64,000 bases of DNA from Candidatus Colwellbacteria bacterium (lineage in GTDB: Bacteria; Patescibacteriota; Minisyncoccia; UBA6257; Colwellbacteraceae), in the NCBI GenBank assembly GCA_016176505.1, contig JACOXB010000006.1, positions 7,240 to 71,239 of the forward strand. The letters run 5' to 3'. Position numbers and translations under genes: made by a program. The stretch's first letter is position 1. Each line of letters opens with the position of its first letter. The notes beneath the pieces are model-generated. The model worked only from the letters and a program-made list of their open reading frames with translations, ran no database searches and was not told the origin of the DNA. Of this stretch, positions 5,368 to 43,514 are shown piece by piece.

Positions 5368-5630
5368 GGCACCTCAACATTAAAATATACGGCTTGGTTC
5401 AGGGCGTTATCTTCAGACAATCGGCTAAAAAGAAGGCTGAGGAGTTGGGTCTTGTCGGATTTGTCCGAAACGAACCTGATGGTACAGTTTATATCGAGGC
5501 CGAGGGGTCAGATGAAGTGCTCGAGATATTCGTTCATTGGTGTCGGGAGGGTCCGGAGCACGCTTCGGTCGAAAAGGTCGAAGCCGAGGAGGGGGATTTT
5601 GAAAACTTCCAAGAGTTCGAAATTAGATGA
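5364..5630 (+). CDS. acyP: Acylphosphatase
   Basis: VxGxVQGVxFR ... GFVRNxxDGTV signature. GTG start overlaps the upstream stop. Confidence 0.7.
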   Translation: MRHLNIKIYGLVQGVIFRQSAKKKAEELGLVGFVRNEPDGTVYIEAEGSDEVLEIFVHWCREGPEHASVEKVEAEEGDFENFQEFEIR

Positions 5631-5641
5631 AGTAACTAAGA

Positions 5642-6100
5642 ATGAAATTAGAAAGTCTAGTTTTTGAAAATAATAGTTCTATTCCGGCGAAATATACTTG
5701 CGATGGCGAGAATATTAATCCGCCGCTTAAGTTTAGCGAAGTGCCCGAAAGTACTGCGAGCCTAGTTTTAATTATGGATGATCCGGATGTGCCGAAATCT
5801 GTTAAGCCTGACGGCATATGGGATCACTGGCTTATTTGGGATATGCCGCCGGAAACATCAGAGATCAGAGAAGGAGAAGCGCCAATGGGAACTCTGGGCA
5901 AAAATACTGGCGGCAGTTTTGGTTATCAAGGGCCTTGCCCGCCGGATCGAGAACACCGATATTTTTTTAAACTTTACGCCCTGGATAAAAAGCTCGGTTT
6001 ACCTCGCGAAACAACCACTAAAAAAGATTTAGAAGCAGCAATGGGAGGGCATATTTTAGCCGAGACCCAACTTATGGGTCGTTACGATCGCGCGAGATGA
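5642..6100 (+). CDS. PEBP / YbhB-YbcL family protein
   Basis: DPDVP ... HRYFFKLYALD motifs of the phosphatidylethanolamine-binding protein family. Confidence 0.7.
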   Translation: MKLESLVFENNSSIPAKYTCDGENINPPLKFSEVPESTASLVLIMDDPDVPKSVKPDGIWDHWLIWDMPPETSEIREGEAPMGTLGKNTGGSFGYQGPCPPDREHRYFFKLYALDKKLGLPRETTTKKDLEAAMGGHILAETQLMGRYDRAR

Positions 6101-6282
6101 GTCTTAACCAGCTCTAGGAGTTCCTGGACGTGCGCTTCCTTATCTTCAGCCATTTTTCCCCAGAACCGATCGCATTCTTCGCAACCGGCCGAGTCAGTTA
6201 AATAATGGTTTTTAATTCGCCAAAGGCTTTTATGCTCCTGGGTTAACTGGAGCAGGAGATTGTAAATGTGGTTACTGAGCAC
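6082..6282 (-). CDS. Small hypothetical protein (66 aa)
   Basis: ORF only; overlaps the 3' end of the PEBP gene. Confidence 0.3.
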   Translation of the reverse strand: MLSNHIYNLLLQLTQEHKSLWRIKNHYLTDSAGCEECDRFWGKMAEDKEAHVQELLELVKTHLARS

Positions 6283-6291
6283 GGAATGTGT

Positions 6292-7470
6292 TTAATTTTT
6301 AATGATTGTTTCGACCTTTTCCCGGCGCCTGATTAATCTGGCGCGGTTCGCCTCTATTAAAACCTCAGCTGGACGCGGTCGCAGATTATAATTCGAGCTC
6401 ATGCTAAAGCCATAAGCCCCGGCATTTAAGATAGCGAGCGCGTCTCCGATTTTAGGGAGGGGGATAGGCCGGTCTTTAGCAAAGAAATCAGCTGATTCGC
6501 AGATATTTCCCACAATTGAAGCTTTAATTTTCTTGCCTCCTTGTCGGCTCAAATTAACTATTTCGTGGTAACTATCATACATGGCTGGCCGAATCAGGTG
6601 ATTAAACCCCGAGTTTACGCCGATAAAAACTTTTGAAGGGTTAATTTTGATGTCTGTGACTGTGACGAGCAGGGTGCCGGCCTCAGCGATTAAATAGCGG
6701 CCTGGTTCGAAAACAAAATTAAGCTTTCGGCCATAAACCGCCTCAAATTCTTTTAAGATCTTAACTACCGAGCGGCCAAGGCGATTTAAATCAAGAGGTT
6801 TTTCATTCGGTCGATAGGGGATGCCGATCCCGCCGCCAAAATCAATAAATTCTAAATCAGGAAAGCGTCGAGCGGTATGAAGCAGGGCCATCATTGCCTC
6901 AATGAATATTTTTTTATTTTCGTTAAGAATACCCGAGCCAATGTGCTGTTGGATTCCATTTACGGTGAGCTTGTATTTTTTAGCGAGAGCCAAAGCCTTA
7001 TTAATTTGGCGAACATCAATGCCAAATTTACTTTCTGGTCCGCCGGTAATGAAGTGATGGTGATTGCCGGCGCCAATACCTTGATTGACCCTGAAGCTGA
7101 TTGATGTGCCAGGTGCTAGCTCGCCCCACATTTTAATCTGGTTAAGCGAATCAAGGTTTACCCTGATTTTTCTCTTGTTAAGAGTTTCGAGCTCCTCCTT
7201 AGTGATATTACTACAGGTATAAATAATATCTTTTGGTTTAAATCCGGCCTTGAGTGAAATTAAAACTTCGCCAAGACTGACAGTTTCCGCTCCAGCCCCG
7301 AGCTTTCTTAAATACCTTAATATCTCGAGATTACTATTAGCCTTAACCGCATAATGAATTCTCAATCTGGGGTGATTAAGATTTTTAGCCAGTTTCTGAT
7401 AGCGGTCTTTAATAACCCTGGCTTCATAAACATAAAGCGGAGCACCGTATTTTTTAACCAGACTTTTCAC
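6292..7470 (-). CDS. lysA: PLP-dependent fold-III decarboxylase, probably diaminopimelate decarboxylase
   Basis: HYAVKANSN lysine-PLP motif, GGG loop, size typical of LysA. Confidence 0.75.
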   Translation of the reverse strand: MKSLVKKYGAPLYVYEARVIKDRYQKLAKNLNHPRLRIHYAVKANSNLEILRYLRKLGAGAETVSLGEVLISLKAGFKPKDIIYTCSNITKEELETLNKRKIRVNLDSLNQIKMWGELAPGTSISFRVNQGIGAGNHHHFITGGPESKFGIDVRQINKALALAKKYKLTVNGIQQHIGSGILNENKKIFIEAMMALLHTARRFPDLEFIDFGGGIGIPYRPNEKPLDLNRLGRSVVKILKEFEAVYGRKLNFVFEPGRYLIAEAGTLLVTVTDIKINPSKVFIGVNSGFNHLIRPAMYDSYHEIVNLSRQGGKKIKASIVGNICESADFFAKDRPIPLPKIGDALAILNAGAYGFSMSSNYNLRPRPAEVLIEANRARLIRRREKVETIIKN

Positions 7471-7504
7471 TAATTAATTTTAGCTAATAAATAGGTTTAA
7501 ATAA

Positions 7505-7531
7505 AAAAACCATCTTCGAAAGATGGGCGGG
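7505..7531 (-). terminator. Rho-independent terminator (minus strand) between the GC-rich element and the lysA start
   Basis: Minus-strand reading ccatctttcgaagatgg followed by ttttttt; a second GC hairpin lies immediately upstream. Confidence 0.5.
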
Positions 7532-8300
7532 GGGCGGGAGGTTCCTGAGAACCCCCCGCCCCCGCGGCGACCGCGGAGGGGTGCGGTCGGGGGCGACGGA
7601 AGGGCCCGGCGGACTCGTAACGAGCAGCTCGGGGAATGGGCACGGGTCAGGCCGCCCGCCAACAGGGCCCACACAGGCCCTCCGTCGTGGTGGATGGCGG
7701 CTGCGCGGCTACCATCCCACCGGGATGAGGAGAAGTCGGTCAGAGCCGACCGCGGTGTTGCTCGAGGGACGCCTCGCCCCTGAAAGGCGTCCACCGCGCT
7801 ATGCCTGCGTCTCGGCCCGTCCGGGATCCGGGCAGCGCTAGGCTTCGGGTCGGCCGAAGGACCGAGCATCTCCTCATCGCTTTAGCGGAGAAAGACTCCG
7901 CCAAGACGTATCATATTGCTCAAGGTGCGGGCGCTCCAACTTATGTCGGAGTGGATGGGGGAGTAAGACAGGACGAGGGACGCCCTGCTTCTTGGAGGAG
8001 AAGGGTTTGGGCATCCCTACCGGGGGAACCTCCCACCATCCAATTTAATTGTGGCCGAAAAGCAGTCTAGCTGTCAATTGGGGATAAGGAGCTCGAACTC
8101 ATCTCCTCAAGAACGCTCTCCGCTCGGATAAATAAACCCTCACTCAGCCAAAAAAGGGTGAAGCTGCTCACGGACTCAACCAATCTAAGGATACCCGACG
8201 TCCTTAGATTGGGATTTAAACATCGTTCGCCGCTCTTCTTCTTAGTGGCCTCGTTCGGTTATTTCCAACCTCGCTCCGAGATGTTCTTTACGGAGACAAG
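7532..8300 (-). ncRNA. GC-rich, hairpin-dense non-coding segment; candidate large structured RNA of unknown class (boundaries approximate)
   Basis: GC is about 65-70% against ~45% background. All six frames are open with Pro/Arg/Gly-rich pseudo-ORFs. Many perfect hairpins (ccaatctaaggacgtcgggtatccttagattgg; gacgcctttcaggggcgaggcgtc). Ends at a minus-strand terminator. I could not find RNase P or tmRNA consensus motifs. Confidence 0.3.
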
Positions 8301-15519: not shown

Positions 15520-15550
15520 GTTGAGTAGCGTAGTTTACGCGAGTAGTGTT

Positions 15551-15594
15551 AAAACCAAAACCGGTCCGACTACAGTCGGACCGGTTTTGGTTTT
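15551..15594. terminator. Long perfect hairpin (bidirectional terminator) after the 670-aa gene
   Basis: aaaaccaaaaccggtccgac taca gtcggaccggttttggtttt. Confidence 0.6.
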
Positions 15595-15713
15595 AGTCGC
15601 CCAGTCGGCCGTCTCGGGAAAACTCCCGTTTTCCCGACCCCTTTCCCGTTCGAATCTTAGCCCGTCATCATAAAACAAAAATCCCTCGCCACAAGGCGGG
15701 GACTTTTGTTTTG

Positions 15714-15784
15714 CTGCCGGGCAGGGATTCGAACCCCGATACTCAGGTCCAAAACCTGATGTCCTACCATTAGACGACCCGGCA
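15714..15784 (-). tRNA. tRNA-Gln (anticodon TTG)
   Basis: Minus-strand cloverleaf. Acceptor TGCCGGG/CCCGGCA, anticodon stem TCAGG/CCTGA with loop TTTTGGA, T-arm GGGGTTCGAATCCCT. No CCA encoded. Confidence 0.8.
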
Positions 15785-16277: not shown

Positions 16278-16319
16278 ACAGAATATTATAACATTCTACA
16301 GAATGTTATAATATTCTGT
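16278..16319. repeat. AT-rich 42-bp palindrome, family P, copy 1
   Basis: acagaatattataacattct a cagaatgttataatattctgt; related copies at 22870, 39032, 57078. Confidence 0.65.
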
Positions 16320-16339: not shown

Positions 16340-16403
16340 AAAAAGACCCGCGTTGCGAATCTTACGGAGAGAGCGGTCCGATTCAAATCGGACCGCTCTC
16401 TCC
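16340..16403 (-). terminator. Hairpin terminator downstream of the minus-strand zinc-ribbon gene
   Basis: ggagagagcggtccgat tcaa atcggaccgctctctcc is a 17-bp perfect stem; a T-tract follows on the minus strand about 20 nt later. Confidence 0.45.
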
Positions 16404-32475: not shown

Positions 32476-33066
32476 ATGGAGGAATTAAACAACGCCGTTG
32501 AAAGCGACGAATTAGTTTTAATTCTTCACGGTGCCTCAAAAGGCATTAATTCAGAACCGGTAACCTCGATTTTTAATCGATTAAAGACAGCGTCGAAGAG
32601 GGTATCTGCGATCGAATTTTCTTTTATTACTAAAAAGACGGATCCTGATCCCGATCAAATCGTTGAAACCGAAGAATTAGAGAATTATTTAAAAGCTCAG
32701 CGCTATAAGAGATTAACAGTCATTGCTCACTCCAATGGCGGCCTCGTGGCATTAGTCGCCACCACTCGAGGCCTCGTTATCAATCACTTAATTCTGCTCG
32801 GTTTAACTTCGGTCACAAAAGAGGGGACTAAGCAAATCATCGCAGAAATAGTTCGGAAGATAACCTCCGAAGGAAATAGGGTAACCATAATACAACCAGA
32901 AAACGATCCCTATTCAACCCCCTTAGAAGTTAAAAACTTTATAAACGAGTTCGATTTAGACGTTGAGCTTTATACCATTCCAGGAGATCATTACTTCAGG
33001 GGAGCCGAGCCTAAACTTTCAGATCTAATATATGAATTAGTATCTGCTACTGAGCATGCTCAGTAG
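32476..33066 (+). CDS. Alpha/beta-fold serine hydrolase (hypothetical)
   Basis: GxSxG (AHSNGG). The stop codon lies inside the palindrome ctgctactgagcatgctcagtag. Confidence 0.5.
   Translation: MEELNNAVESDELVLILHGASKGINSEPVTSIFNRLKTASKRVSAIEFSFITKKTDPDPDQIVETEELENYLKAQRYKRLTVIAHSNGGLVALVATTRGLVINHLILLGLTSVTKEGTKQIIAEIVRKITSEGNRVTIIQPENDPYSTPLEVKNFINEFDLDVELYTIPGDHYFRGAEPKLSDLIYELVSATEHAQ
33044..33066. repeat. Palindrome ctgctactgagcatgctcagtag, copy 1; second copy at 34118-34143
   Basis: Perfect inverted repeat centred on gcatgc. Together with copy 2 it brackets the dehydrogenase gene and precedes the AbrB-like gene. Confidence 0.5.
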
Positions 33067-33129
33067 TAGGTTCGATCTAAGAGTGGGATCAATTTCCTGC
33101 CGGTTTGTGGTCTGATATAATTTGCTTAT

Positions 33130-34071: not shown

Positions 34072-34117
34072 GTGTATTCCGAGGGAGGGCTAAGCCATTC
34101 CTATTCGAATGTCCATC

Positions 34118-34143
34118 CTGCTACTGAGCATGCTCAGTAGCAG
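34118..34143. repeat. Palindrome ctgctactgagcatgctcagtagcag, copy 2 (candidate operator)
   Basis: Same 26-bp inverted repeat as 33044-33066, about 30 bp upstream of the AbrB-like ORF. Confidence 0.5.
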
Positions 34144-34173
34144 GTTCAGTAGCAATCCTCTAAGATATTAGAG

Positions 34174-34347
34174 ATGGTAAAGAAACCTCATATCCGAAAA
34201 CTCACCCGCATGGGCGGCGGCCGCTCGCTCGGTCTCGTCCTCCCCGCCGATTTAGTCCGCGACCTCAACTGGCGCGAACGCCAAAAAGTCGTGGTCAAGA
34301 AGGTCGGGAAAAGGATAGTCGTCGAGGATTGGCCAGTTCGAGAGTGA
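34174..34347 (+). CDS. AbrB/MazE/SpoVT-family small DNA-binding protein (57 aa)
   Basis: MVKKPHIRKLTRMGGGRSLGLVLPADLVRDLNW... has a swapped-hairpin-like core. About 60% GC. Not in the ORF track (shorter than 60 aa). Immediately upstream of the methyltransferase. Confidence 0.45.
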   Translation: MVKKPHIRKLTRMGGGRSLGLVLPADLVRDLNWRERQKVVVKKVGKRIVVEDWPVRE

Positions 34348-34359
34348 GGGGGTAATTTC

Positions 34360-35313
34360 ATGAAAAAACCATCATCAAATAAAAGCCTACATAAAGCAAA
34401 AGATATCAAGAATGATGAATTTTATACTCGTTTTGATGATATTCAGGCAGAACTAAATTTTTATAAAGACCAGTTTAAAGGCAAAGTAATTTACTGTAAT
34501 TGCGATGATCCGGCCGAAAGCGCCTTCATTGATTTTTTCAAATTGAATTTCGATTACTTAGGTATTAAAAAGTTAATTGGTACTCGCTATCAAAAATCAA
34601 ACCTCTTTTTGTTTGCCGACCCTGCTAGACGGAACGGTTATAGGTTAGAAATAACAGCGAAAAATAAAGACGACAAAAAACCCGTCAAAATAAATTTGAA
34701 AGGAGACGGTGACTTTCGTTCGCCGGAATGCATTGAGTTATTAGAAGAGGCGGACATTGTTATTACTAACCCGCCGTTTTCACTGTTTCGTGAATATGTC
34801 GCTCAATTGATGAAATACAATAAAAAGTTTTTGATAATTGGAAACGATAACGCCATTAAATATAAAGGGATTTTTGAGCTAATAAAAGAAAATAAAGTAT
34901 GGCTTGGTTACACTAGAGCTAAGGAGTTTTATAGACCAGACGGCTCAACACAAAAATTTGGCAATGTTGGTTGGTATACTAATTTAGATGTTAAAAAGCG
35001 ACATGAAGAGTTGTTTTTGTATAAAACATACAAAGACAATAAAAAAGATTACCCAAAATATGATAATTATGACGCAATTGAAGTCTCAAGAATAAAGAAC
35101 ATACCAATGGATTATGAAGGATCAATGGGTGTTCCAATTACTTTCTTAAACAAGCACAACCCTGGGCAATTTGATATTATTGATCTACTAAATAGATATA
35201 CCTTGCTTGATACGCAAAAGACAAATGAAGATGTTAGAGCAAGACATTCCCACACTTGTAATATAAACGGTAAGGCCGTCTATTCTAGGATCGTGATTAA
35301 AAGAAAAAAATAA
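34360..35313 (+). CDS. EcoRI-family N6-adenine DNA methyltransferase (M.EcoRI-like)
   Basis: Collinear with M.EcoRI as I recall it: KSLHKAKDIKNDEFYT, VIYCNCDDP, NPPFSLFREY, FLIIGN, YPKYDNYDAI, MGVPITFL. About 33% GC, well below the window average. Confidence 0.8.
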   Translation: MKKPSSNKSLHKAKDIKNDEFYTRFDDIQAELNFYKDQFKGKVIYCNCDDPAESAFIDFFKLNFDYLGIKKLIGTRYQKSNLFLFADPARRNGYRLEITAKNKDDKKPVKINLKGDGDFRSPECIELLEEADIVITNPPFSLFREYVAQLMKYNKKFLIIGNDNAIKYKGIFELIKENKVWLGYTRAKEFYRPDGSTQKFGNVGWYTNLDVKKRHEELFLYKTYKDNKKDYPKYDNYDAIEVSRIKNIPMDYEGSMGVPITFLNKHNPGQFDIIDLLNRYTLLDTQKTNEDVRARHSHTCNINGKAVYSRIVIKRKK

Positions 35314-35316
35314 ACT

Positions 35317-36426
35317 ATGGATACGATACATCAACGAATAAAAGTAAAAGATGTTTTTAATGGCTACCTAGATAAAGATTGGGACGGCGTTGTCGGTTAT
35401 GGCGGAAAATTAGATATTCGCCCAATTTACCAGCGTGAGTTTATCTACAACCCAGAAAATGAGCGAGCGGTTATAGACACAATTTTGAAGGAGCATCCGC
35501 TAAATCTGATGTATTGGGTCAAAAATAAGAACCACAATTTTGAATTATTGGATGGGCAACAGCGAACCTTGTCAATTTGCCGTTTTCTTGATCATAAATA
35601 TCACATTGAACTCAACGGAGAAAAAAGATATTGTGATACATTATTGAAGGAAGATTTGGATAAAATAAAAAATTACGAACTAGATGTCTATATTTGCGAA
35701 GGAAAAGAAAAAGAAATTTTAGAATGGTTTAAAACCATAAATATTAAAGGTAAAGAATTAAACCCTCAAGAATTATTAAACGCCACTCATACAGGAACTT
35801 GGCTTACCGACGCAAAAAGGTATTTTAGCAAGCCAAATTGTGCCGCCAAGGGTTTGGGAGAAGATTATATTAACGCAAGCGTGGAACGACAGGAATTTTT
35901 AGAAACCGCTTTGAAATGGATAAACAATGGAGACGCGCAAGGTTATATGGCGATTCACAGAAACGACGCGAACGCAAAAGAACTACAAGATTATTTTGCT
36001 AATGTAATTAAATGGATTAAAAAAACTTTTACTACCCATCGCAGAGAAATGAAAAATGTGAACTGGGGCGAGCTATATAATCAATTCAAGGATGTGAAGC
36101 TTGATGCCGGTAAATTGGAGAAAGAAATTGCCAAACTGATGGAGGACGAAGAAATTGGTGATCAAAAAGGAATTTATGATTATGTCTTGACGAGAAATGA
36201 GCGAAGCTTGAATCTGCGAACTTTTGACGAAAAAACCAAACGCCGAACTTACGAAAAACAAAAAGGAATTTGTCCACATTGTAAGGGAGAGAATAAGAAA
36301 AAGAAATGGAAATTTGAGGAAATGGAAGGTGATCATAAAAAACTTTGGAGCGAGGGAGGAAAAACAATCCCAGAAAATTGCCAAATGTTATGCAAGGACT
36401 GTCATCGAGAAAAATCTGGAAAATAA
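35317..36426 (+). CDS. DUF262 (DGQQR, ParB-like) plus C-terminal HNH nuclease fusion; GmrSD-like type IV restriction candidate
   Basis: LLDGQQRTL motif at the N-terminus. C-terminal CPHCKG ... GDHKKLWSEGG ... NCQMLCKDCHREK is a canonical HNH. AT-rich like the MTase, 4 bp downstream of it. Confidence 0.7.
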   Translation: MDTIHQRIKVKDVFNGYLDKDWDGVVGYGGKLDIRPIYQREFIYNPENERAVIDTILKEHPLNLMYWVKNKNHNFELLDGQQRTLSICRFLDHKYHIELNGEKRYCDTLLKEDLDKIKNYELDVYICEGKEKEILEWFKTINIKGKELNPQELLNATHTGTWLTDAKRYFSKPNCAAKGLGEDYINASVERQEFLETALKWINNGDAQGYMAIHRNDANAKELQDYFANVIKWIKKTFTTHRREMKNVNWGELYNQFKDVKLDAGKLEKEIAKLMEDEEIGDQKGIYDYVLTRNERSLNLRTFDEKTKRRTYEKQKGICPHCKGENKKKKWKFEEMEGDHKKLWSEGGKTIPENCQMLCKDCHREKSGK

Positions 36427-36516
36427 TACGAACGGGGGAGATAGTAAGGGAGATTAAAATTGTTGAGAGCGGGTCAGATTGATGGGGGAAGAGGTAGGGT
36501 TTAGAATAAGGTCATC

Positions 36517-37542
36517 ATGGAACGCAAAACATTAATTCAACAAATAGAGGGATTAAGGAGCTCCAAGGTAATCACTTATATCACTAGCGATCGGCAGGGG
36601 CCGGTGAGCGCTAAAGTGGCTATGGATATCATTCCCGTCATGAGCCGACAGCTTCGAGATATCGGAAAAACCGAAAACATCGATTTATTTCTTTATAGTA
36701 CGGGGGGAGATACTATGGTGCCGTGGCGTTTGGTCTCTATGGTCAGGGAATACTGCGAGAAGTTTTCCGTACTAATACCATACAAAGCCCATAGTGCGGC
36801 AACTATGATTGCGCTCGGGGCGGATGAAGTAGTGATGAGCGATCTCTCTGAGCTGTCACCGATCGATCCGTCAACGGCAAACGTTTTTAACCCAATCGAT
36901 CCAAAAAATCCGCAGAATAGAGTTGCCATCTCCGTCGAAGACGTAATGGCCTATTTCGATCTAGTTAAAAACAAATTTGGGGTGAAAAACGACGAGGACC
37001 TCACTAAAGTCTTCGTAAAGTTTATCGAGTCGAACCCTCAGATTCACCCTCTAGCACTAGGTAACGTAAATCGTATCCATAATTTAATTCGTATTCTTGC
37101 GCAGAGGCTTCTAAAAAGCCACAGGTCGCCCATGAAAGAGGAAGAAATAAATAAAGTGGTTGATTACTTTACGGAAAAACTTTACTCACACCAATACTTT
37201 ATCGGTCGCAAAGAAGCCAAAGAAGATCTGGGGCTAAAAACGGTAGTTTTTGCTGATAGCGCACTTTCTAAAGCGATGACCGATCTTTACGGAGAATATG
37301 AGAAAGAAATGGAACTCGGTGTAATATGGAATCCGGAAAATGAGCTCGGCCTAAACGCTGCACAGAATAGAAAAACATATAAGATTGCCTTTATTGAGGG
37401 CAACCAACCCTCGAATTATTTTGAACTTGAAGTCGAATATCGCAGGCAGCAGATGAATGTAGCCCAACAAACTCCTCAAGGCTCGATCCAGGTTCCGCAA
37501 GAACAGGTTATTTGGCGGGTTGTCGGCCAGGGGTGGAGATAA
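36517..37542 (+). CDS. ClpP-fold serine protease (SDH / S49-like family)
   Basis: LFLYSTGGDTMVPWRL ... YKAHSAATMIALGADEV aligns with the ClpP/S49 oxyanion and catalytic-Ser regions. Confidence 0.55.
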   Translation: MERKTLIQQIEGLRSSKVITYITSDRQGPVSAKVAMDIIPVMSRQLRDIGKTENIDLFLYSTGGDTMVPWRLVSMVREYCEKFSVLIPYKAHSAATMIALGADEVVMSDLSELSPIDPSTANVFNPIDPKNPQNRVAISVEDVMAYFDLVKNKFGVKNDEDLTKVFVKFIESNPQIHPLALGNVNRIHNLIRILAQRLLKSHRSPMKEEEINKVVDYFTEKLYSHQYFIGRKEAKEDLGLKTVVFADSALSKAMTDLYGEYEKEMELGVIWNPENELGLNAAQNRKTYKIAFIEGNQPSNYFELEVEYRRQQMNVAQQTPQGSIQVPQEQVIWRVVGQGWR

Positions 37543-37551
37543 GGAATACCT

Positions 37552-37974
37552 ATGTCGACCATTAAACCAAAAATAAATTACGCCTTTCTATGTGATTATG
37601 CCTTTATTAGTGGGGGCGATAAGTTAAATATTATCGGGATTTTTAAAAACATAAACACGCAGAATCTTCCAGCTCAACACCCTTTGATGTTTGTGGTTAC
37701 TAGTATAGCCGTGGCGACTAAGGGTAACTTTAAAGTAAATATCAAATTTGTTCGCCGGCTAGATAATGTGGAGATAATCCCGCCCCTAGATTTCGATATT
37801 TCCATGGTTTCAGATGAGGGATCTAGAGAGGGGGAACTTGGCGTAATAGGTCAAATTGCAAATCTAAAATTCGAGGAAGCCGGGATGTACGATGTCCTAG
37901 TTCTTGTTAACGGAGAGAACATAGGAAGTTTGCCTCTCCAAGTACTCCATTTAAAGAAAAATGCCGCGAAATAA
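37552..37974 (+). CDS. Hypothetical 140-aa protein (second gene of the protease operon)
   Basis: 10-bp spacing from the protease gene; soluble; no family recognised. Confidence 0.4.
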   Translation: MSTIKPKINYAFLCDYAFISGGDKLNIIGIFKNINTQNLPAQHPLMFVVTSIAVATKGNFKVNIKFVRRLDNVEIIPPLDFDISMVSDEGSREGELGVIGQIANLKFEEAGMYDVLVLVNGENIGSLPLQVLHLKKNAAK

Positions 37975-38344
37975 AAAAGCGGAGAAGCCGAAATCATCAT
38001 TTCAATTTCTGGCAACAGAGAGTGAGTCGACTGGTGATATAACGCCGCTGGAAAAACGAGTAAGTCCTATCGAGATCAGGGTTGGGCAACTCGAGGTAAA
38101 ACTAGAGGCGCTAGAAGAACGACTGAAAGGCGAACGAGCTCTAAAATTATGGGTGATAGGTACCGTACTAGCGATTGTTGCAGGCATTTTCGGGGCCCTT
38201 ACGATATACATCAATTTAACCAAAGATTCACAGGACTCATACCGAGAGCTTCAGAATAATTATTACGAGAAACTACTGGAGCTAAGGAAAGATATTTTAT
38301 CAGAGAAAAACGCTAGCTCTCAACCACCTCAAAGCGCTAAGTGA
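37961..38344 (+). CDS. Coiled-coil protein with one TM helix (127 aa)
   Basis: Overlaps the previous gene by 14 nt; heptad region then a TM segment. Confidence 0.4.
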   Translation: MPRNKKAEKPKSSFQFLATESESTGDITPLEKRVSPIEIRVGQLEVKLEALEERLKGERALKLWVIGTVLAIVAGIFGALTIYINLTKDSQDSYRELQNNYYEKLLELRKDILSEKNASSQPPQSAK

Positions 38345-38388
38345 GCAGGATCCTCGGACAGCCGTAATTTAATTGAGAAATAAAATTT

Positions 38389-38955
38389 ATGGATAATTTC
38401 GAATTTTTTATTAGGAATACTTCTATAAATATAAGAGAGCTTAGGGATAAAATCGGTAAGTCGTTGCTCGATCTTAGAGTAGATAATATTAAACAAATCA
38501 GAGAACTTATTAAGCAGTTTATTATAATTTCCGGTGCGATTATCGGTTTCACGATACCGGTGTTTGGAAGAACTAAACTTATCAGAACGCCAGTATTTCT
38601 TACCGGTGGACTAATAGAGCTGTTAATCGTCATGGTGTATGCCTTTTATTACCTGATGCATATTTTAGAGAGCGAAAATCAAAAGTTAGGAGAACAGCAC
38701 GAACGTTATAATAAGATTATTGATAGCCTAAGAGATAATCTGATTATTTTTGCCACGAGCGATAAGACCGAGAAAGACGCACAAAAGCAACTTGACTCCG
38801 ATAAACAAGTGTTGGATGAATTTCTATCCGAAGAGGCGGGCGACAAGGGTAATAAGAAAGATTACGCCTTAAATATTATTTTTTCTGCGTTTTTGGTCGG
38901 ACTCGTATTGATAATCTTATCAATGATAAATTTTCAGAATTTAATTTCGGATTAG
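38389..38955 (+). CDS. Three-TM membrane protein (188 aa)
   Basis: AT-rich; hydrophobic helices at roughly 55-75, 85-110 and 165-185; charged coiled-coil middle region. Confidence 0.4.
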   Translation: MDNFEFFIRNTSINIRELRDKIGKSLLDLRVDNIKQIRELIKQFIIISGAIIGFTIPVFGRTKLIRTPVFLTGGLIELLIVMVYAFYYLMHILESENQKLGEQHERYNKIIDSLRDNLIIFATSDKTEKDAQKQLDSDKQVLDEFLSEEAGDKGNKKDYALNIIFSAFLVGLVLIILSMINFQNLISD

Positions 38956-39031
38956 CATTATGGAAAAGTTAGTTTCGCTCGGATTTATATTTATCGTAGT
39001 GAGCCTGGGGTTTTACGGCCTCTAAGTTATT

Positions 39032-39072
39032 ACAGATATTATAACATTCTGCAGAATGTTATAATGTTCTAT
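39032..39072. repeat. AT-rich palindrome family P, copy 3
   Basis: acagatattataacattctg cagaatgttataatgttctat. Confidence 0.6.
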
Positions 39073-39121
39073 TTATGACAAATTGATGGCGGAGCGGTTG
39101 TGCTATATTTAAACTATATCA

Positions 39122-39559
39122 ATGAGATGGAGCGGGAATAGGGATTTATCAAAATGGTTTATTCCCTTTATGGCTTTGTGGGGGATTTTCTTTGGCGAGT
39201 TCTTGCCGGTGTGCTTGGAGAATAGTTTTAACTGTTTCCCCAAAACAACGCCGCCAGGCGCCAAAGAGTCAATGTTCTCCGGCCTTGATATGTTCATCCC
39301 AACCGTAGTGATTTATTTTATTCTGGCTACGGTTTTCTGGTGGCTCTATCGAAAACTAGATTGGAAAATAGTCTTTGTTATAGCGATTGTGGTCGGTCAG
39401 GTTCTGGAGTTTGCCTTCTTTAGGCCCCAAGAGGGAGACGGCGTAAATGTGGTTGATAATCCGCTCTACTCATTCTTATTTTTCTTAATCATCTGGCCAA
39501 TTCTACTCGTAGCGCCATATGGCATTTTCCAGAAATTCTTTGCCAAGAAGAAGAAATAA
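39122..39559 (+). CDS. Membrane protein (hypothetical)
   Basis: 145 aa with 4 TM helices. Confidence 0.4.
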   Translation: MRWSGNRDLSKWFIPFMALWGIFFGEFLPVCLENSFNCFPKTTPPGAKESMFSGLDMFIPTVVIYFILATVFWWLYRKLDWKIVFVIAIVVGQVLEFAFFRPQEGDGVNVVDNPLYSFLFFLIIWPILLVAPYGIFQKFFAKKKK

Positions 39560-39579
39560 TTGAGAAATAAAATTTAAAA

Positions 39580-42324: not shown

Positions 42325-42558
42325 ATGAGGATATTTGTTAAAGCCAAGCCGAATGCTAAAGAGACGCGGATTGAGAAACTAGATGAGAATCGTTTTGCCG
42401 TAGCGGTGAAAGAGCCGCCGATTGGCGGCCGAGCTAATGTCGCGATTGAAAAGGTGATTGCTGAGCACTTTAAAGTGCCAGTCTCAAGAGTGCGGATTGT
42501 TTCCGGCCATACTTCGCGGCAAAAAGTATTCGAGATAACAGGCGAACTTTTTTGTTAG
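42325..42558 (+). CDS. DUF167 / YggU-family protein
   Basis: KAKPNAK ... V ... PP..G.AN ... FEI pattern. Confidence 0.6.
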   Translation: MRIFVKAKPNAKETRIEKLDENRFAVAVKEPPIGGRANVAIEKVIAEHFKVPVSRVRIVSGHTSRQKVFEITGELFC

Positions 42559-43514
42559 TTTTTCAACCTTGAGCCGCTGTGAAATTTTTTATGGATTTCG
42601 CGCAGTTTTTTACTGGTAACGTGAGTATAAATTTGAGTGGCCGTAATGCTCTGATGTCCTAGAAATTCTTGAAGGATGCGGATGTCCACTCCTTGGCTTA
42701 AGAGATCTGTCGCGAAAGAGTGACGAAGAACATGAGGGGTAGTGTTCGCGGGTAAACCGGCGAGAAGCGCATATTTTTGGATGCTCTTCTCAATAGATCG
42801 AGCGGTAAGGCGGCGTGAGGCGCTAGACATGCTCCTATAGTTTATAAATAGGGCCTTATCATTATCAGTACGAGATTTCAGGTATCTTTTAAGCCATTGA
42901 AGCGTTCTTGACGAAAAATACACCGTACGGGCCCTACTGCCTTTGCCAACAATTCCTAGTTCTAGCTCATTTAAATTAAGTGACGATTGAATTTGTTCGC
43001 GATTTAGGGCAACCAGTTCTGATATCCGCATGCCGGTGGAAAAAAATGTTTCGAGTATGGCCCTATCTCTAAGTCCGCTCGCCTTATTCACGTTAGGAAT
43101 CGAAAATAATCTTTCAAGTTGTTCTAGCGTGAGAAAACGGACCTCTTTCTCGCCTTTATCGCGAGGTAATTTTATTTTCTCTGGCGGCAGGGCTAGAATG
43201 TCGCGCTCAGCAAAATAAGTTAATAAAGAGCGCAGGGCTATCAAATAATAAGCCTGGGTGCTTTTACTGAGCGATTTTGAAGACCGCTTGGATCGGGTCT
43301 GACGGGCGAGGTAGATTCGGTATTTCCAGACATGGTCAGGGGAGAGGTCGTGAGGTTTTAAATCAGAGAGTTTATTTTCTTTTAACCAATCTAAAAACCG
43401 ATTTAAAAACCGAGCATAATTTTCTTGAGTTTTAGATGATAAACCTTTTTGGACATCAAGCCAGTCTAAATAATCTGGAAGATGCTGGGGAAGTGGTTTT
43501 GAGCTTTTAACCAT
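42555..43514 (-). CDS. xerC: Tyrosine site-specific recombinase XerC/XerD
   Basis: HVLRHSFATDLL ... GHQSITATQIYTHV catalytic box (R..H..R..Y) and an N-terminal core-binding domain. Confidence 0.8.
   Translation of the reverse strand: MVKSSKPLPQHLPDYLDWLDVQKGLSSKTQENYARFLNRFLDWLKENKLSDLKPHDLSPDHVWKYRIYLARQTRSKRSSKSLSKSTQAYYLIALRSLLTYFAERDILALPPEKIKLPRDKGEKEVRFLTLEQLERLFSIPNVNKASGLRDRAILETFFSTGMRISELVALNREQIQSSLNLNELELGIVGKGSRARTVYFSSRTLQWLKRYLKSRTDNDKALFINYRSMSSASRRLTARSIEKSIQKYALLAGLPANTTPHVLRHSFATDLLSQGVDIRILQEFLGHQSITATQIYTHVTSKKLREIHKKFHSGSRLKN

Follow-up and report, generated by a model that had tools for sequence, protein, structure and literature searches.

Does a run of seven co-directional genes that includes a DNA methyltransferase, a nuclease and a ClpP-fold protease constitute a single novel anti-phage system, or was it assembled from parts that also travel separately? 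The question is raised by the segment from 34.1 to 39.6 kb of a 64,000-nucleotide (nt) stretch of DNA, hereafter the window, from a groundwater metagenome-assembled genome (MAG) of Candidatus Colwellbacteria, a member of the Patescibacteria or candidate phyla radiation (CPR); the genes carry locus tags HYS89_00720-00750. A first-pass annotation had proposed that they form an anti-phage defence island whose architecture matches no named system. The present data are better accommodated by a model in which this segment is, with good probability, a mosaic in which at least five independently mobile units are joined head to tail, and not one defence system. In this model, an AbrB-like regulator is followed by a Type II restriction-modification (R-M) pair, a stand-alone SDH-type serine protease that would be expressed from its own promoter upstream of swappable modules and R-M operons, a putative two-gene module comprising a DUF6941 protein and a single-pass coiled-coil membrane protein, and a presumptive 1.19-kb insert. 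The earlier proposal thus stands insofar as this is an accessory island of the conflict type that includes a true R-M system, but not in treating it as one system.

Much of what that proposal was built on is sound. All seven genes were recovered in the open reading frame (ORF) list of the window, on the forward strand and at the positions assigned to them (Table 1). The EcoRI_methylase, GmrSD_N/DUF262 plus HNH and SDH_protease domain calls hold, and the AbrB-like protein falls just below the Pfam cut-off, with 21.9 bits where the gathering score of PF04014 is 24.7. The shifts in guanine-plus-cytosine (GC) content are likewise real, with the methyltransferase and nuclease genes below, and the regulator gene above, the 45.8% of the window. 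The shared orientation of the genes, however, is not distinctive, as the forward strand carries almost all long ORFs between about 18.1 and 41.6 kb, so that co-directionality is background. Similarly, the flanks that had been described as housekeeping-type consist of ordinary but not strictly housekeeping genes, encoding a 2-hydroxyacid dehydrogenase and an alpha/beta-hydrolase on the 5' side and a protein with four transmembrane (TM) segments, a DUF2196 protein and TspO on the 3' side.

Whether the seven genes nevertheless act together can be judged from their occurrence elsewhere, in loci fetched for comparison and numbered with the prefix L. Conservation of the neighbourhood does exist: in L023, five of the seven (methyltransferase, nuclease, SDH protease, DUF6941 protein, TM protein) follow one another as they do in the window, and the R-M family and the protease are found together again in L044 and L087. 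However, every part also occurs alone elsewhere, and the parts display five different GC levels. The order and orientation of the R-M genes relative to the protease vary from locus to locus, the protease preceding a 243-amino-acid (aa) gene and then the methyltransferase and nuclease in L087, and adjoining an inverted R-M pair in L044. Further, L023 lacks both the AbrB-like gene and the 188-aa gene, and the last gene of the seven lies inside a repeat-bounded insert. One integrated anti-phage system of seven genes is thus very improbable, being largely refuted by these independent occurrences.

The R-M pair illustrates this. The two proteins correspond at full length to PADLOC models, the methyltransferase to MTase_II (E = 2e-114) and the nuclease to REase_II (PDLC03418, E = 8e-112, model positions 2-370 of 372). 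The former contains ITNPPF, with the NPPF motif, in its translation. The latter joins an N-terminal GmrSD_N/DUF262 domain (PF03235, E = 2e-18), in which LLDGQQRT can be read, to a C-terminal HNH domain (PF01844, E = 4e-10) with the pattern CxxC...H...N...CxxC. Only 3 nt separate the methyltransferase stop from the nuclease start, and the same order, in which the stop codon of the first gene touches or overlaps the start codon of the second, is kept in L023 (53/53% identity), L044 and L086-L091; indeed, the DUF262-HNH nuclease is paired with a methylase in every locus seen. The two-gene cassette also occurs by itself, with the protease absent nearby, on plasmids of the Firmicute Mammaliicoccus sciuri and the Proteobacterium Aeromonas caviae. 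As predicted from sequence, the pair is a classical stand-alone Type II R-M cassette, an outcome that had been named beforehand as one that would speak against a novel system. From what is understood of these families, the M.EcoRI-family enzyme would methylate adenine within a specific site and the DUF262-HNH enzyme would cut DNA that does not carry the methyl mark. Copies of the nuclease at 90% identity or more were found in Buchananbacteria, another CPR lineage, and in several metagenomes, which is consistent with the low GC content of the gene and with a recent arrival.

Assignment of the nuclease to the GmrSD-type Type IV enzymes was considered and rejected, as Pfam returned no DUF1524 match, a methylase partner is always present and the match to the PADLOC mREase_IV model is marginal (1.4e-3). 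Full-text literature searches for DUF262-HNH Type II enzymes returned Type IV work only. A palindrome-avoidance test over the 64 kb revealed no clear R-M site: GAATTC occurs 21 times, with 21.0 expected, and CAATTG is likewise not depleted. The 4-mer palindromes TGCA (55 against 99 expected), GATC (239 against 310) and CATG (71 against 110) are mildly under-represented in the window, a depletion for which no link to the R-M pair emerged.

The gene immediately upstream of this pair encodes a small protein of putative AbrB/MazE swapped-hairpin fold, in which Pfam detected no helix-turn-helix (HTH) domain. It has 20 homologues at 63-93% identity, three of which (P0297, P0298 and P0303) carry PF04014 on record. 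A 695-aa protein (P0122) placed with it in a 90%-identity cluster is initiation factor IF-2, and this apparent cluster mate was set aside as a clustering artefact, not a fusion. Upstream of the gene lies a perfect palindrome with the arms CCTGCTACTGAGCA and TGCTCAGTAGCAGG (34117-34144), followed by a third TCAGTA half-site at 34146-34151, the whole ending 23 nt 5' of the start codon. The first-pass annotation had taken this palindrome and an AT-rich one downstream as brackets of the island. Both are present and both are non-random, but they do not mark its limits, as further copies exist at 33044 and at 16278-16319. Since the second GC-rich copy sits at 33044, the pair (33044, 34118) brackets the dehydrogenase gene and not the island. 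On the same grounds, and because the motif is tied to AbrB-like genes, the palindromes were rejected as att sites or island boundaries.

The distribution of the motif TACTGA-N6-TCAGTA points instead to regulation. The window contains two copies where chance predicts none. Among the fetched loci it is present in six of the seven with an AbrB-like homologue and in none of 108 others, and in those six it always lies immediately 5' of the homologue gene (L108 3473-3490, L110 954-971, L112 88-105, L113 2465-2482 and L114 2392-2409, with L109 as the sixth). The arrangement of three half-sites recurs in L112, L113 and L114, and the palindrome only in L108, L109 and L110. Because of this conservation, the upstream palindrome is read as the predicted operator of the regulator gene. 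The AbrB-like protein would then bind its own TACTGA-N6-TCAGTA-N6-TCAGTA site and is probably an autoregulated repressor. As its stop codon lies 12 nt before the methyltransferase ATG, with GAGGGGG in the gap, it probably also governs expression of the R-M genes, the role of C proteins in other R-M systems. The copy at 33044-33069 overlaps the stop of the hydrolase gene and stands 61 nt 5' of the dehydrogenase gene, which may for that reason be co-regulated.

A second R-M context is provided by L112, in which a 75%-identical homologue (147-350) and the start of a second gene (347-1850) overlap by 4 nt. That gene encodes a Type ISP R-M enzyme, more than 1000 aa in length, to which both N6_Mtase and Type_ISP_C were matched. 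Other homologues stand 5' of unrelated genes. The AbrB-like gene therefore looks like a portable regulator cassette that happens to precede an R-M operon here and in L112, and its position before two different kinds of R-M gene suggests a non-HTH class of R-M controller.

The third unit is the protease. Its match to PF01972 scores 50.9 bits against a gathering threshold of 31.3 and spans profile positions 36-162 of 286 only; no TM segment is predicted. In an alignment of 40 family members (33-76% identity), S93 and H225 never vary and conservation of D117 and of D142 is at least 90%, so that S93, D117 (or D142) and H225 form a candidate catalytic triad in the order S-D-H. A broad family profile reached the NfeD protease 1510-N (E = 8e-4) and ClpP (E = 2e-3) in the PDB, both marginal matches, with S93 aligned to the nucleophile motif of 1510-N; PDB searches with the single sequence or a shallow profile returned no match. 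The N-terminal domain is followed by a middle domain of helices and by a beta C-terminus rich in Gln; residues 283-341 form a predicted beta-hairpin with invariant glutamines (QQ...QQTPQG...Q.Q...QGW), a region absent from an Escherichia coli relative. An AlphaFold2 model built from 43 near-identical sequences was poor (pLDDT 66). The NCBIfam equivalog model NF047768 is matched at 60.4 bits, and by the E. coli relative at 69 bits, against a cut-off of 250. PADLOC gave no match for the E. coli homologue, and for the protease, the DUF6941 protein and the membrane proteins its matches are marginal, namely to Dsr1 along a helical stretch (2.9e-3) and to a 2TM effector (0.034). Full-text literature searches found no paper on the protease family and likewise nothing relevant on DUF6941 or on ClpP-like defence.

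The protease clade is remarkable. Searches returned 2238 relatives at E <= 1e-5, of which the best 120 all share 77-84% identity and measure 341-360 aa, and a strict pattern scan of 185,579 species genomes gave 119 matches, with the 80 fetched loci 70-84% identical. The hosts include Patescibacteria, Omnitrophota, Nitrospirota, Smithella/Syntrophaceae, Bacteroidota and others. Clustering at 50% collapses the clade to one representative, the next relatives lie at 46% identity or less, and the wider family comprises some 3,600 clusters. Synonymous sites are saturated (proportion of synonymous differences, pS, 0.79-0.91), the nonsynonymous distance dN is 0.11-0.22, and the GC content of the gene follows that of its host (r = 0.63). 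Saturation and host-tracking GC led to the rejection of recent horizontal transfer as the sole cause of the conservation. The simplest reading is that the gene has been under ordinary-to-strong purifying selection and would have spread horizontally much later than the phyla split.

It could be argued that such a protein is a heat-shock proteostasis protease of CPR bacteria, next to which the other genes are irrelevant insertions. A frame of hrcA-grpE-SDH-[variable]-dnaK-dnaJ is indeed seen in about ten CPR loci (L010, L024, L027, L036, L045, L050, L056, L061, L077 and L087); GrpE lies upstream in nine loci and an HrcA-like gene in seven, DnaK and DnaJ lie downstream in four each, and both the very strong purifying selection and the amelioration of the gene to host GC would fit a housekeeping function. 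However, so few matches in the genome scan, the presence of two copies in four MAGs and an identity of 72-79% across unrelated phyla are not what such a role predicts. The gene is also flanked by RadC, Fic/Doc, Phd, PIN-like, recombinase and R-M genes, and its E. coli relatives are prophage cargo. A proteostasis function is hence improbable, and in L087 and L077 the variable slot of the heat-shock frame is filled by an EcoRI-methylase or DUF262 nuclease cassette.

Still less credible, to the point of being scarcely worth entertaining, is that the protease operon is the remnant of a prophage head-maturation module. This idea draws on weak ClpP-related matches (NCBIfam, 35 bits against a cut-off of 120; PHROG 1684, 4.5e-8), but the best PHROG match is the unannotated family phrog_11747 (2e-37). 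A head-maturation context was looked for around the gene, and no portal, capsid or terminase gene was found either among the annotated flanks in the window or among those neighbour clusters that recur in related loci and were annotated. In the E. coli prophage, a separate HK97 prohead protease adjoins the portal gene and the SDH gene occupies the moron slot between Q and lysis genes. A pattern scan of IMG/VR found no close relative of the protease, and INPHARED phages yielded two weak matches only.

The neighbourhoods of the protease speak for a self-contained unit. In the window a sigma-70-like promoter is predicted just upstream, and a TTGAAA-17-TAAAAT promoter some 10 nt 5' of the ATG is visible in many related loci, although promoter and terminator scans gave matches at or below shuffle expectation. 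This R-M family is missing from 77 of the 80 protease genome loci. The 3' neighbours are highly diverse, comprising DUF6941 (8 loci), a TM protein of about 200 aa (10 loci), a trio ending in a PIN-like protein (3-5 loci), a HindIII-type R-M system (2 loci) and many singletons, and some loci have no same-strand gene downstream. Protease identity is 0.80 within and 0.78 between partner classes, so that the partner class is hardly tracked. A beta-class methyltransferase cluster is co-oriented downstream in 16 loci and upstream in 2, and Type III Res downstream in 9 and upstream in 1; RadC (8 loci), GrpE, the HrcA-like gene and Fic (4 loci) occur upstream only. PADLOC identified mostly Type III and Type II methylases among 148 downstream neighbours, and SoFic, PDC-S04, AbiEii and Cas4-like matches among 148 upstream neighbours; Fic/Doc, Phd and PIN-like genes, recombinases and R-M genes complete the picture. 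The frame RadC-SDH-[variable]-Mod-Res recurs in L006, L011, L025, L032 and L058, and without RadC in L037, L046, L081 and L085; with its constant ends and swappable middle it is like a mobile-element cargo hotspot.

The E. coli relative (331 aa, 37% identity over 278 aa, E = 2e-60) offers a second perspective. Its gene was found in 47 of 5426 complete genomes (0.9%), where it stands alone and on the opposite strand between the Q antiterminator and lambda-family holin genes of lambdoid prophages (L096 5992-6987; L098 and L099 5001-5996), with iss nearby in the lysis region; the prophage protein is represented by WP_086714419 and WP_044064371. The Q-holin slot of lambdoid prophages often holds lysogenic-conversion and defence cargo. 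Given its patchy, multi-copy, cross-phylum spread, its own promoter, the prophage moron slot and the company of R-M, toxin-antitoxin (TA)-like, RadC and Fic genes, it is proposed, with moderate-to-low confidence, that the protease is self-contained and may play a role in phage-host or mobile-element conflict, whether in defence or in exclusion. A broader generalization, by which the clade and its E. coli relatives are anti-phage or phage-exclusion genes that act alone or as the 5' core of swappable cassettes (the DUF6941 and membrane protein pair, the TM protein of about 200 aa, the PIN-like trio and others), and by which AbrB-fold repressors are portable R-M controllers, is put forward only as a tentative possibility.

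An alternate scenario would unite the protease, the DUF6941 protein and the coiled-coil membrane protein in a three-gene abortive-infection-type system. The protease would process or release the small membrane protein, the membrane would then be damaged, and DUF6941 would serve as sensor or adaptor, with parallels in NfeD/stomatin processing and in protease-activated pore-formers. In the window and in L001, L006, L015, L023, L037 and L050 the three genes follow one another in this order with short gaps, and in the window they are packed tightly, with a 9-nt gap and then a 14-nt overlap, such that the DUF6941 pair may be co-transcribed with the protease. It also fits that the nearest solved relative of the protease family, 1510-N, cleaves stomatin and that the membrane proteins weakly match XhlA/BhlA-type models. 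However, those matches are far under threshold, PADLOC recognizes none of the three proteins as a system, and about 70 of the 80 protease loci have unrelated genes in place of DUF6941. Conversely, DUF6941 and its partner exist without the protease (L100, L101 and L103), and in L105 a 249-aa gene lies between them; TM/coiled-coil genes 3' of DUF6941 are found in L100 and L103 as well as in the six loci named above. The protease sequence does not covary with partner class, and its E. coli relative is solitary. The three-gene system, conceivable for the subset of loci that have DUF6941, is accordingly the weaker reading, and an unlikely one, because each part occurs independently.

Separate units therefore remain the preferred explanation for this part of the segment also. 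The DUF6941 protein contrasts starkly with the protease in conservation, as a word search found 8 homologues, 45-54% identical. It has no TM segment and is predicted to be all-beta, although the AlphaFold2 model is poor (pLDDT 54, 8 sequences). The small membrane proteins of the first-pass annotation thus hold for the 127-aa (one TM) and 188-aa (three TM) products but not for DUF6941. Downstream of the 127-aa gene, perfect 20-bp direct repeats bound a 1,187-bp segment that would constitute the fifth unit, with the 3-TM gene, the AT-rich palindrome and a 4-TM gene between them. Because it is bounded in this way, the segment suggests a separate insertion or a duplication junction. No homologue of the 188-aa protein was found in related loci. 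The longer copy of the AT-rich palindrome at 16278-16319 has 20-nt arms and is followed by a GC-rich hairpin with 18-nt arms (16366-16403).

Several observations temper the mosaic model. The protease and this R-M family are found together in four arrangements (window, L023, L044 and L087), and in 8 of 80 loci a co-oriented DUF6941 gene follows the protease gene at a distance of no more than 5 kb; as this pairing and this adjacency recur, some functional coupling is possible. The short gap and the overlap noted above fit one transcript running from the protease through the 127-aa gene. The conservation of the protease and its position in the heat-shock frame are odd for a defence gene, and R-M genes adjoin AbrB-like homologues in only two of seven contexts.

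Table 1. Positions of genes and sequence features in and around the 34.1-39.6 kb segment, in window coordinates.
Feature	Position	Strand	Remarks
Second copy of GC-rich palindrome, with TACTGA-N6-TCAGTA	33044..33069		1 mismatch; outside island
Operator-like site of AbrB-like gene	34117..34151	+	TACTGA-N6-TCAGTA-N6-TCAGTA; predicted
Small putative DNA-binding protein of AbrB/MazE-like (swapped-hairpin) fold, 57 aa	34174..34347	+	57.5% GC; Pfam MazE_antitoxin E 1.7e-4
M.EcoRI-family (gamma-class) N6-adenine DNA methyltransferase, 317 aa	34360..35313	+	32.8% GC; PF13651 E 1.5e-115
DUF262 (ParB-like, DGQQR) + HNH restriction endonuclease, 369 aa	35317..36426	+	35.9% GC
Sigma-70-like promoter TTGATG-17-TAGAAT	36479..36507	+	predicted; ends 9 nt 5' of protease ATG
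SDH-type ClpP/crotonase-fold serine protease, cytoplasmic, 341 aa	36517..37542	+	44.2% GC; SDH_protease PF01972 E 1.5e-13
DUF6941 protein, 140 aa	37552..37974	+	39.2% GC; PF22091 E 3e-24
Single-pass membrane protein with coiled-coil flanks, 127 aa	37961..38344	+	43.5% GC; weak XhlA-like matches only
Left copy of perfect 20-bp direct repeat, TAATTGAGAAATAAAATTTA	38370..38389		
3-TM protein, 188 aa	38389..38955	+	34.6% GC; inside repeat-bounded segment
AT-rich perfect palindrome, arms ATTATAACATTCTG and CAGAATGTTATAAT	39038..39065		
4-TM protein, 145 aa	39122..39559	+	no family match; second gene in repeat-bounded segment
Right copy of perfect 20-bp direct repeat	39557..39576		ends 3 nt before GTG start of DUF2196 gene

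Other features of the surroundings may be recorded here. A 319-aa tyrosine recombinase (Phage_integrase, 1e-39) is encoded on the reverse strand at 42555-43514, about 3 kb past the island, and a related integrase lies 2 kb 3' of the protease gene in L066. A perfect inverted repeat with 22-nt arms (15550-15595) is situated near tRNA-Gln (15713-15784). In L023, the block of R-M and protease genes is preceded (5577-7830) by a HigB/RelE-like and HTH antitoxin pair, a MazG-like gene and a 254-aa protein gene, and followed by a region encoding a fused DUF45-like metallohydrolase and by TspO, making it a richer conflict island than that of the window. An Rfam scan of 32-41 kb (E <= 0.1) gave no RNA family match, and no island-free allele was seen in short Logan contigs of the same strain.

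The island is thus mostly ordinary, a further instance, in a CPR genome, of a Type II R-M cassette that travels widely, together with small accessory genes. Two leads of note emerge from it, the protease clade and the AbrB-type operator and controller, and the existence of an E. coli relative makes the role of the protease directly testable with standard phage panels.

Comparison with known systems helps to place each unit. With Type II systems composed of an HNH endonuclease and an M.EcoRI-family methyltransferase, the pair shares the two-gene M-to-R operon, the near-touching stop and start, the NPPF methylase and the HNH nuclease; it differs in the N-terminal DUF262/DGQQR domain, better known from Type IV enzymes, and in being preceded by a putative AbrB-fold instead of an HTH controller. 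The DUF262-DUF1524 Type IV enzymes GmrSD, BrxU and SspE have the same N-terminal DUF262 domain with DGQQR and a C-terminal His-Me finger nuclease, whereas the nuclease of the island carries HNH PF01844 in place of DUF1524 and always adjoins a cognate methylase. The regulator resembles R-M C proteins in being the product of a small, co-oriented gene directly 5' of R-M genes with a conserved palindromic operator, predicted in the present case. However, C proteins are of the Xre-type HTH class, and the island regulator would have the AbrB/MazE swapped hairpin and is linked to R-M genes in two of seven contexts. From MazEF- or VapBC-like type II TA modules the arrangement differs in that the gene 3' of the regulator encodes a methylase and not a toxin; indeed, Pfam and PADLOC gave no toxin-family match among the seven proteins.

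The protease shares the ClpP/crotonase fold of ClpP, SppA and NfeD 1510-N over its N-terminal 125 or so residues, with the serine in A-x-S-A-x-T. The substrate of the stomatin-operon protease 1510-N is a coiled-coil membrane protein whose gene adjoins that of the protease. The island protease differs from the NfeD/STOPP type in having no membrane anchor, NfeD OB domain or stomatin/SPFH partner, with no NfeD or Band_7 Pfam match in it or in the downstream genes. It is also set apart from other ClpP-fold proteases by its candidate S-D-H order, as opposed to Ser-Lys or the S-H-D of ClpP, by the lack of an evident ATPase partner, and by its unique helical middle domain and Gln-rich C-terminus. A further counterpart is the protein named by PGAP an SDH family Clp fold serine proteinase, related to NF047768 and encoded in E. 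coli lambdoid prophages. That protein lacks the C-terminal 60 or so residues of the CPR clade, and its gene is solitary and on the opposite strand, but it belongs to the same family, with GGDT, HSxxT, PIDPS, SVE, HPLxLG and SHxY in common, and its gene is likewise an accessory, patchily distributed, single transcription unit.

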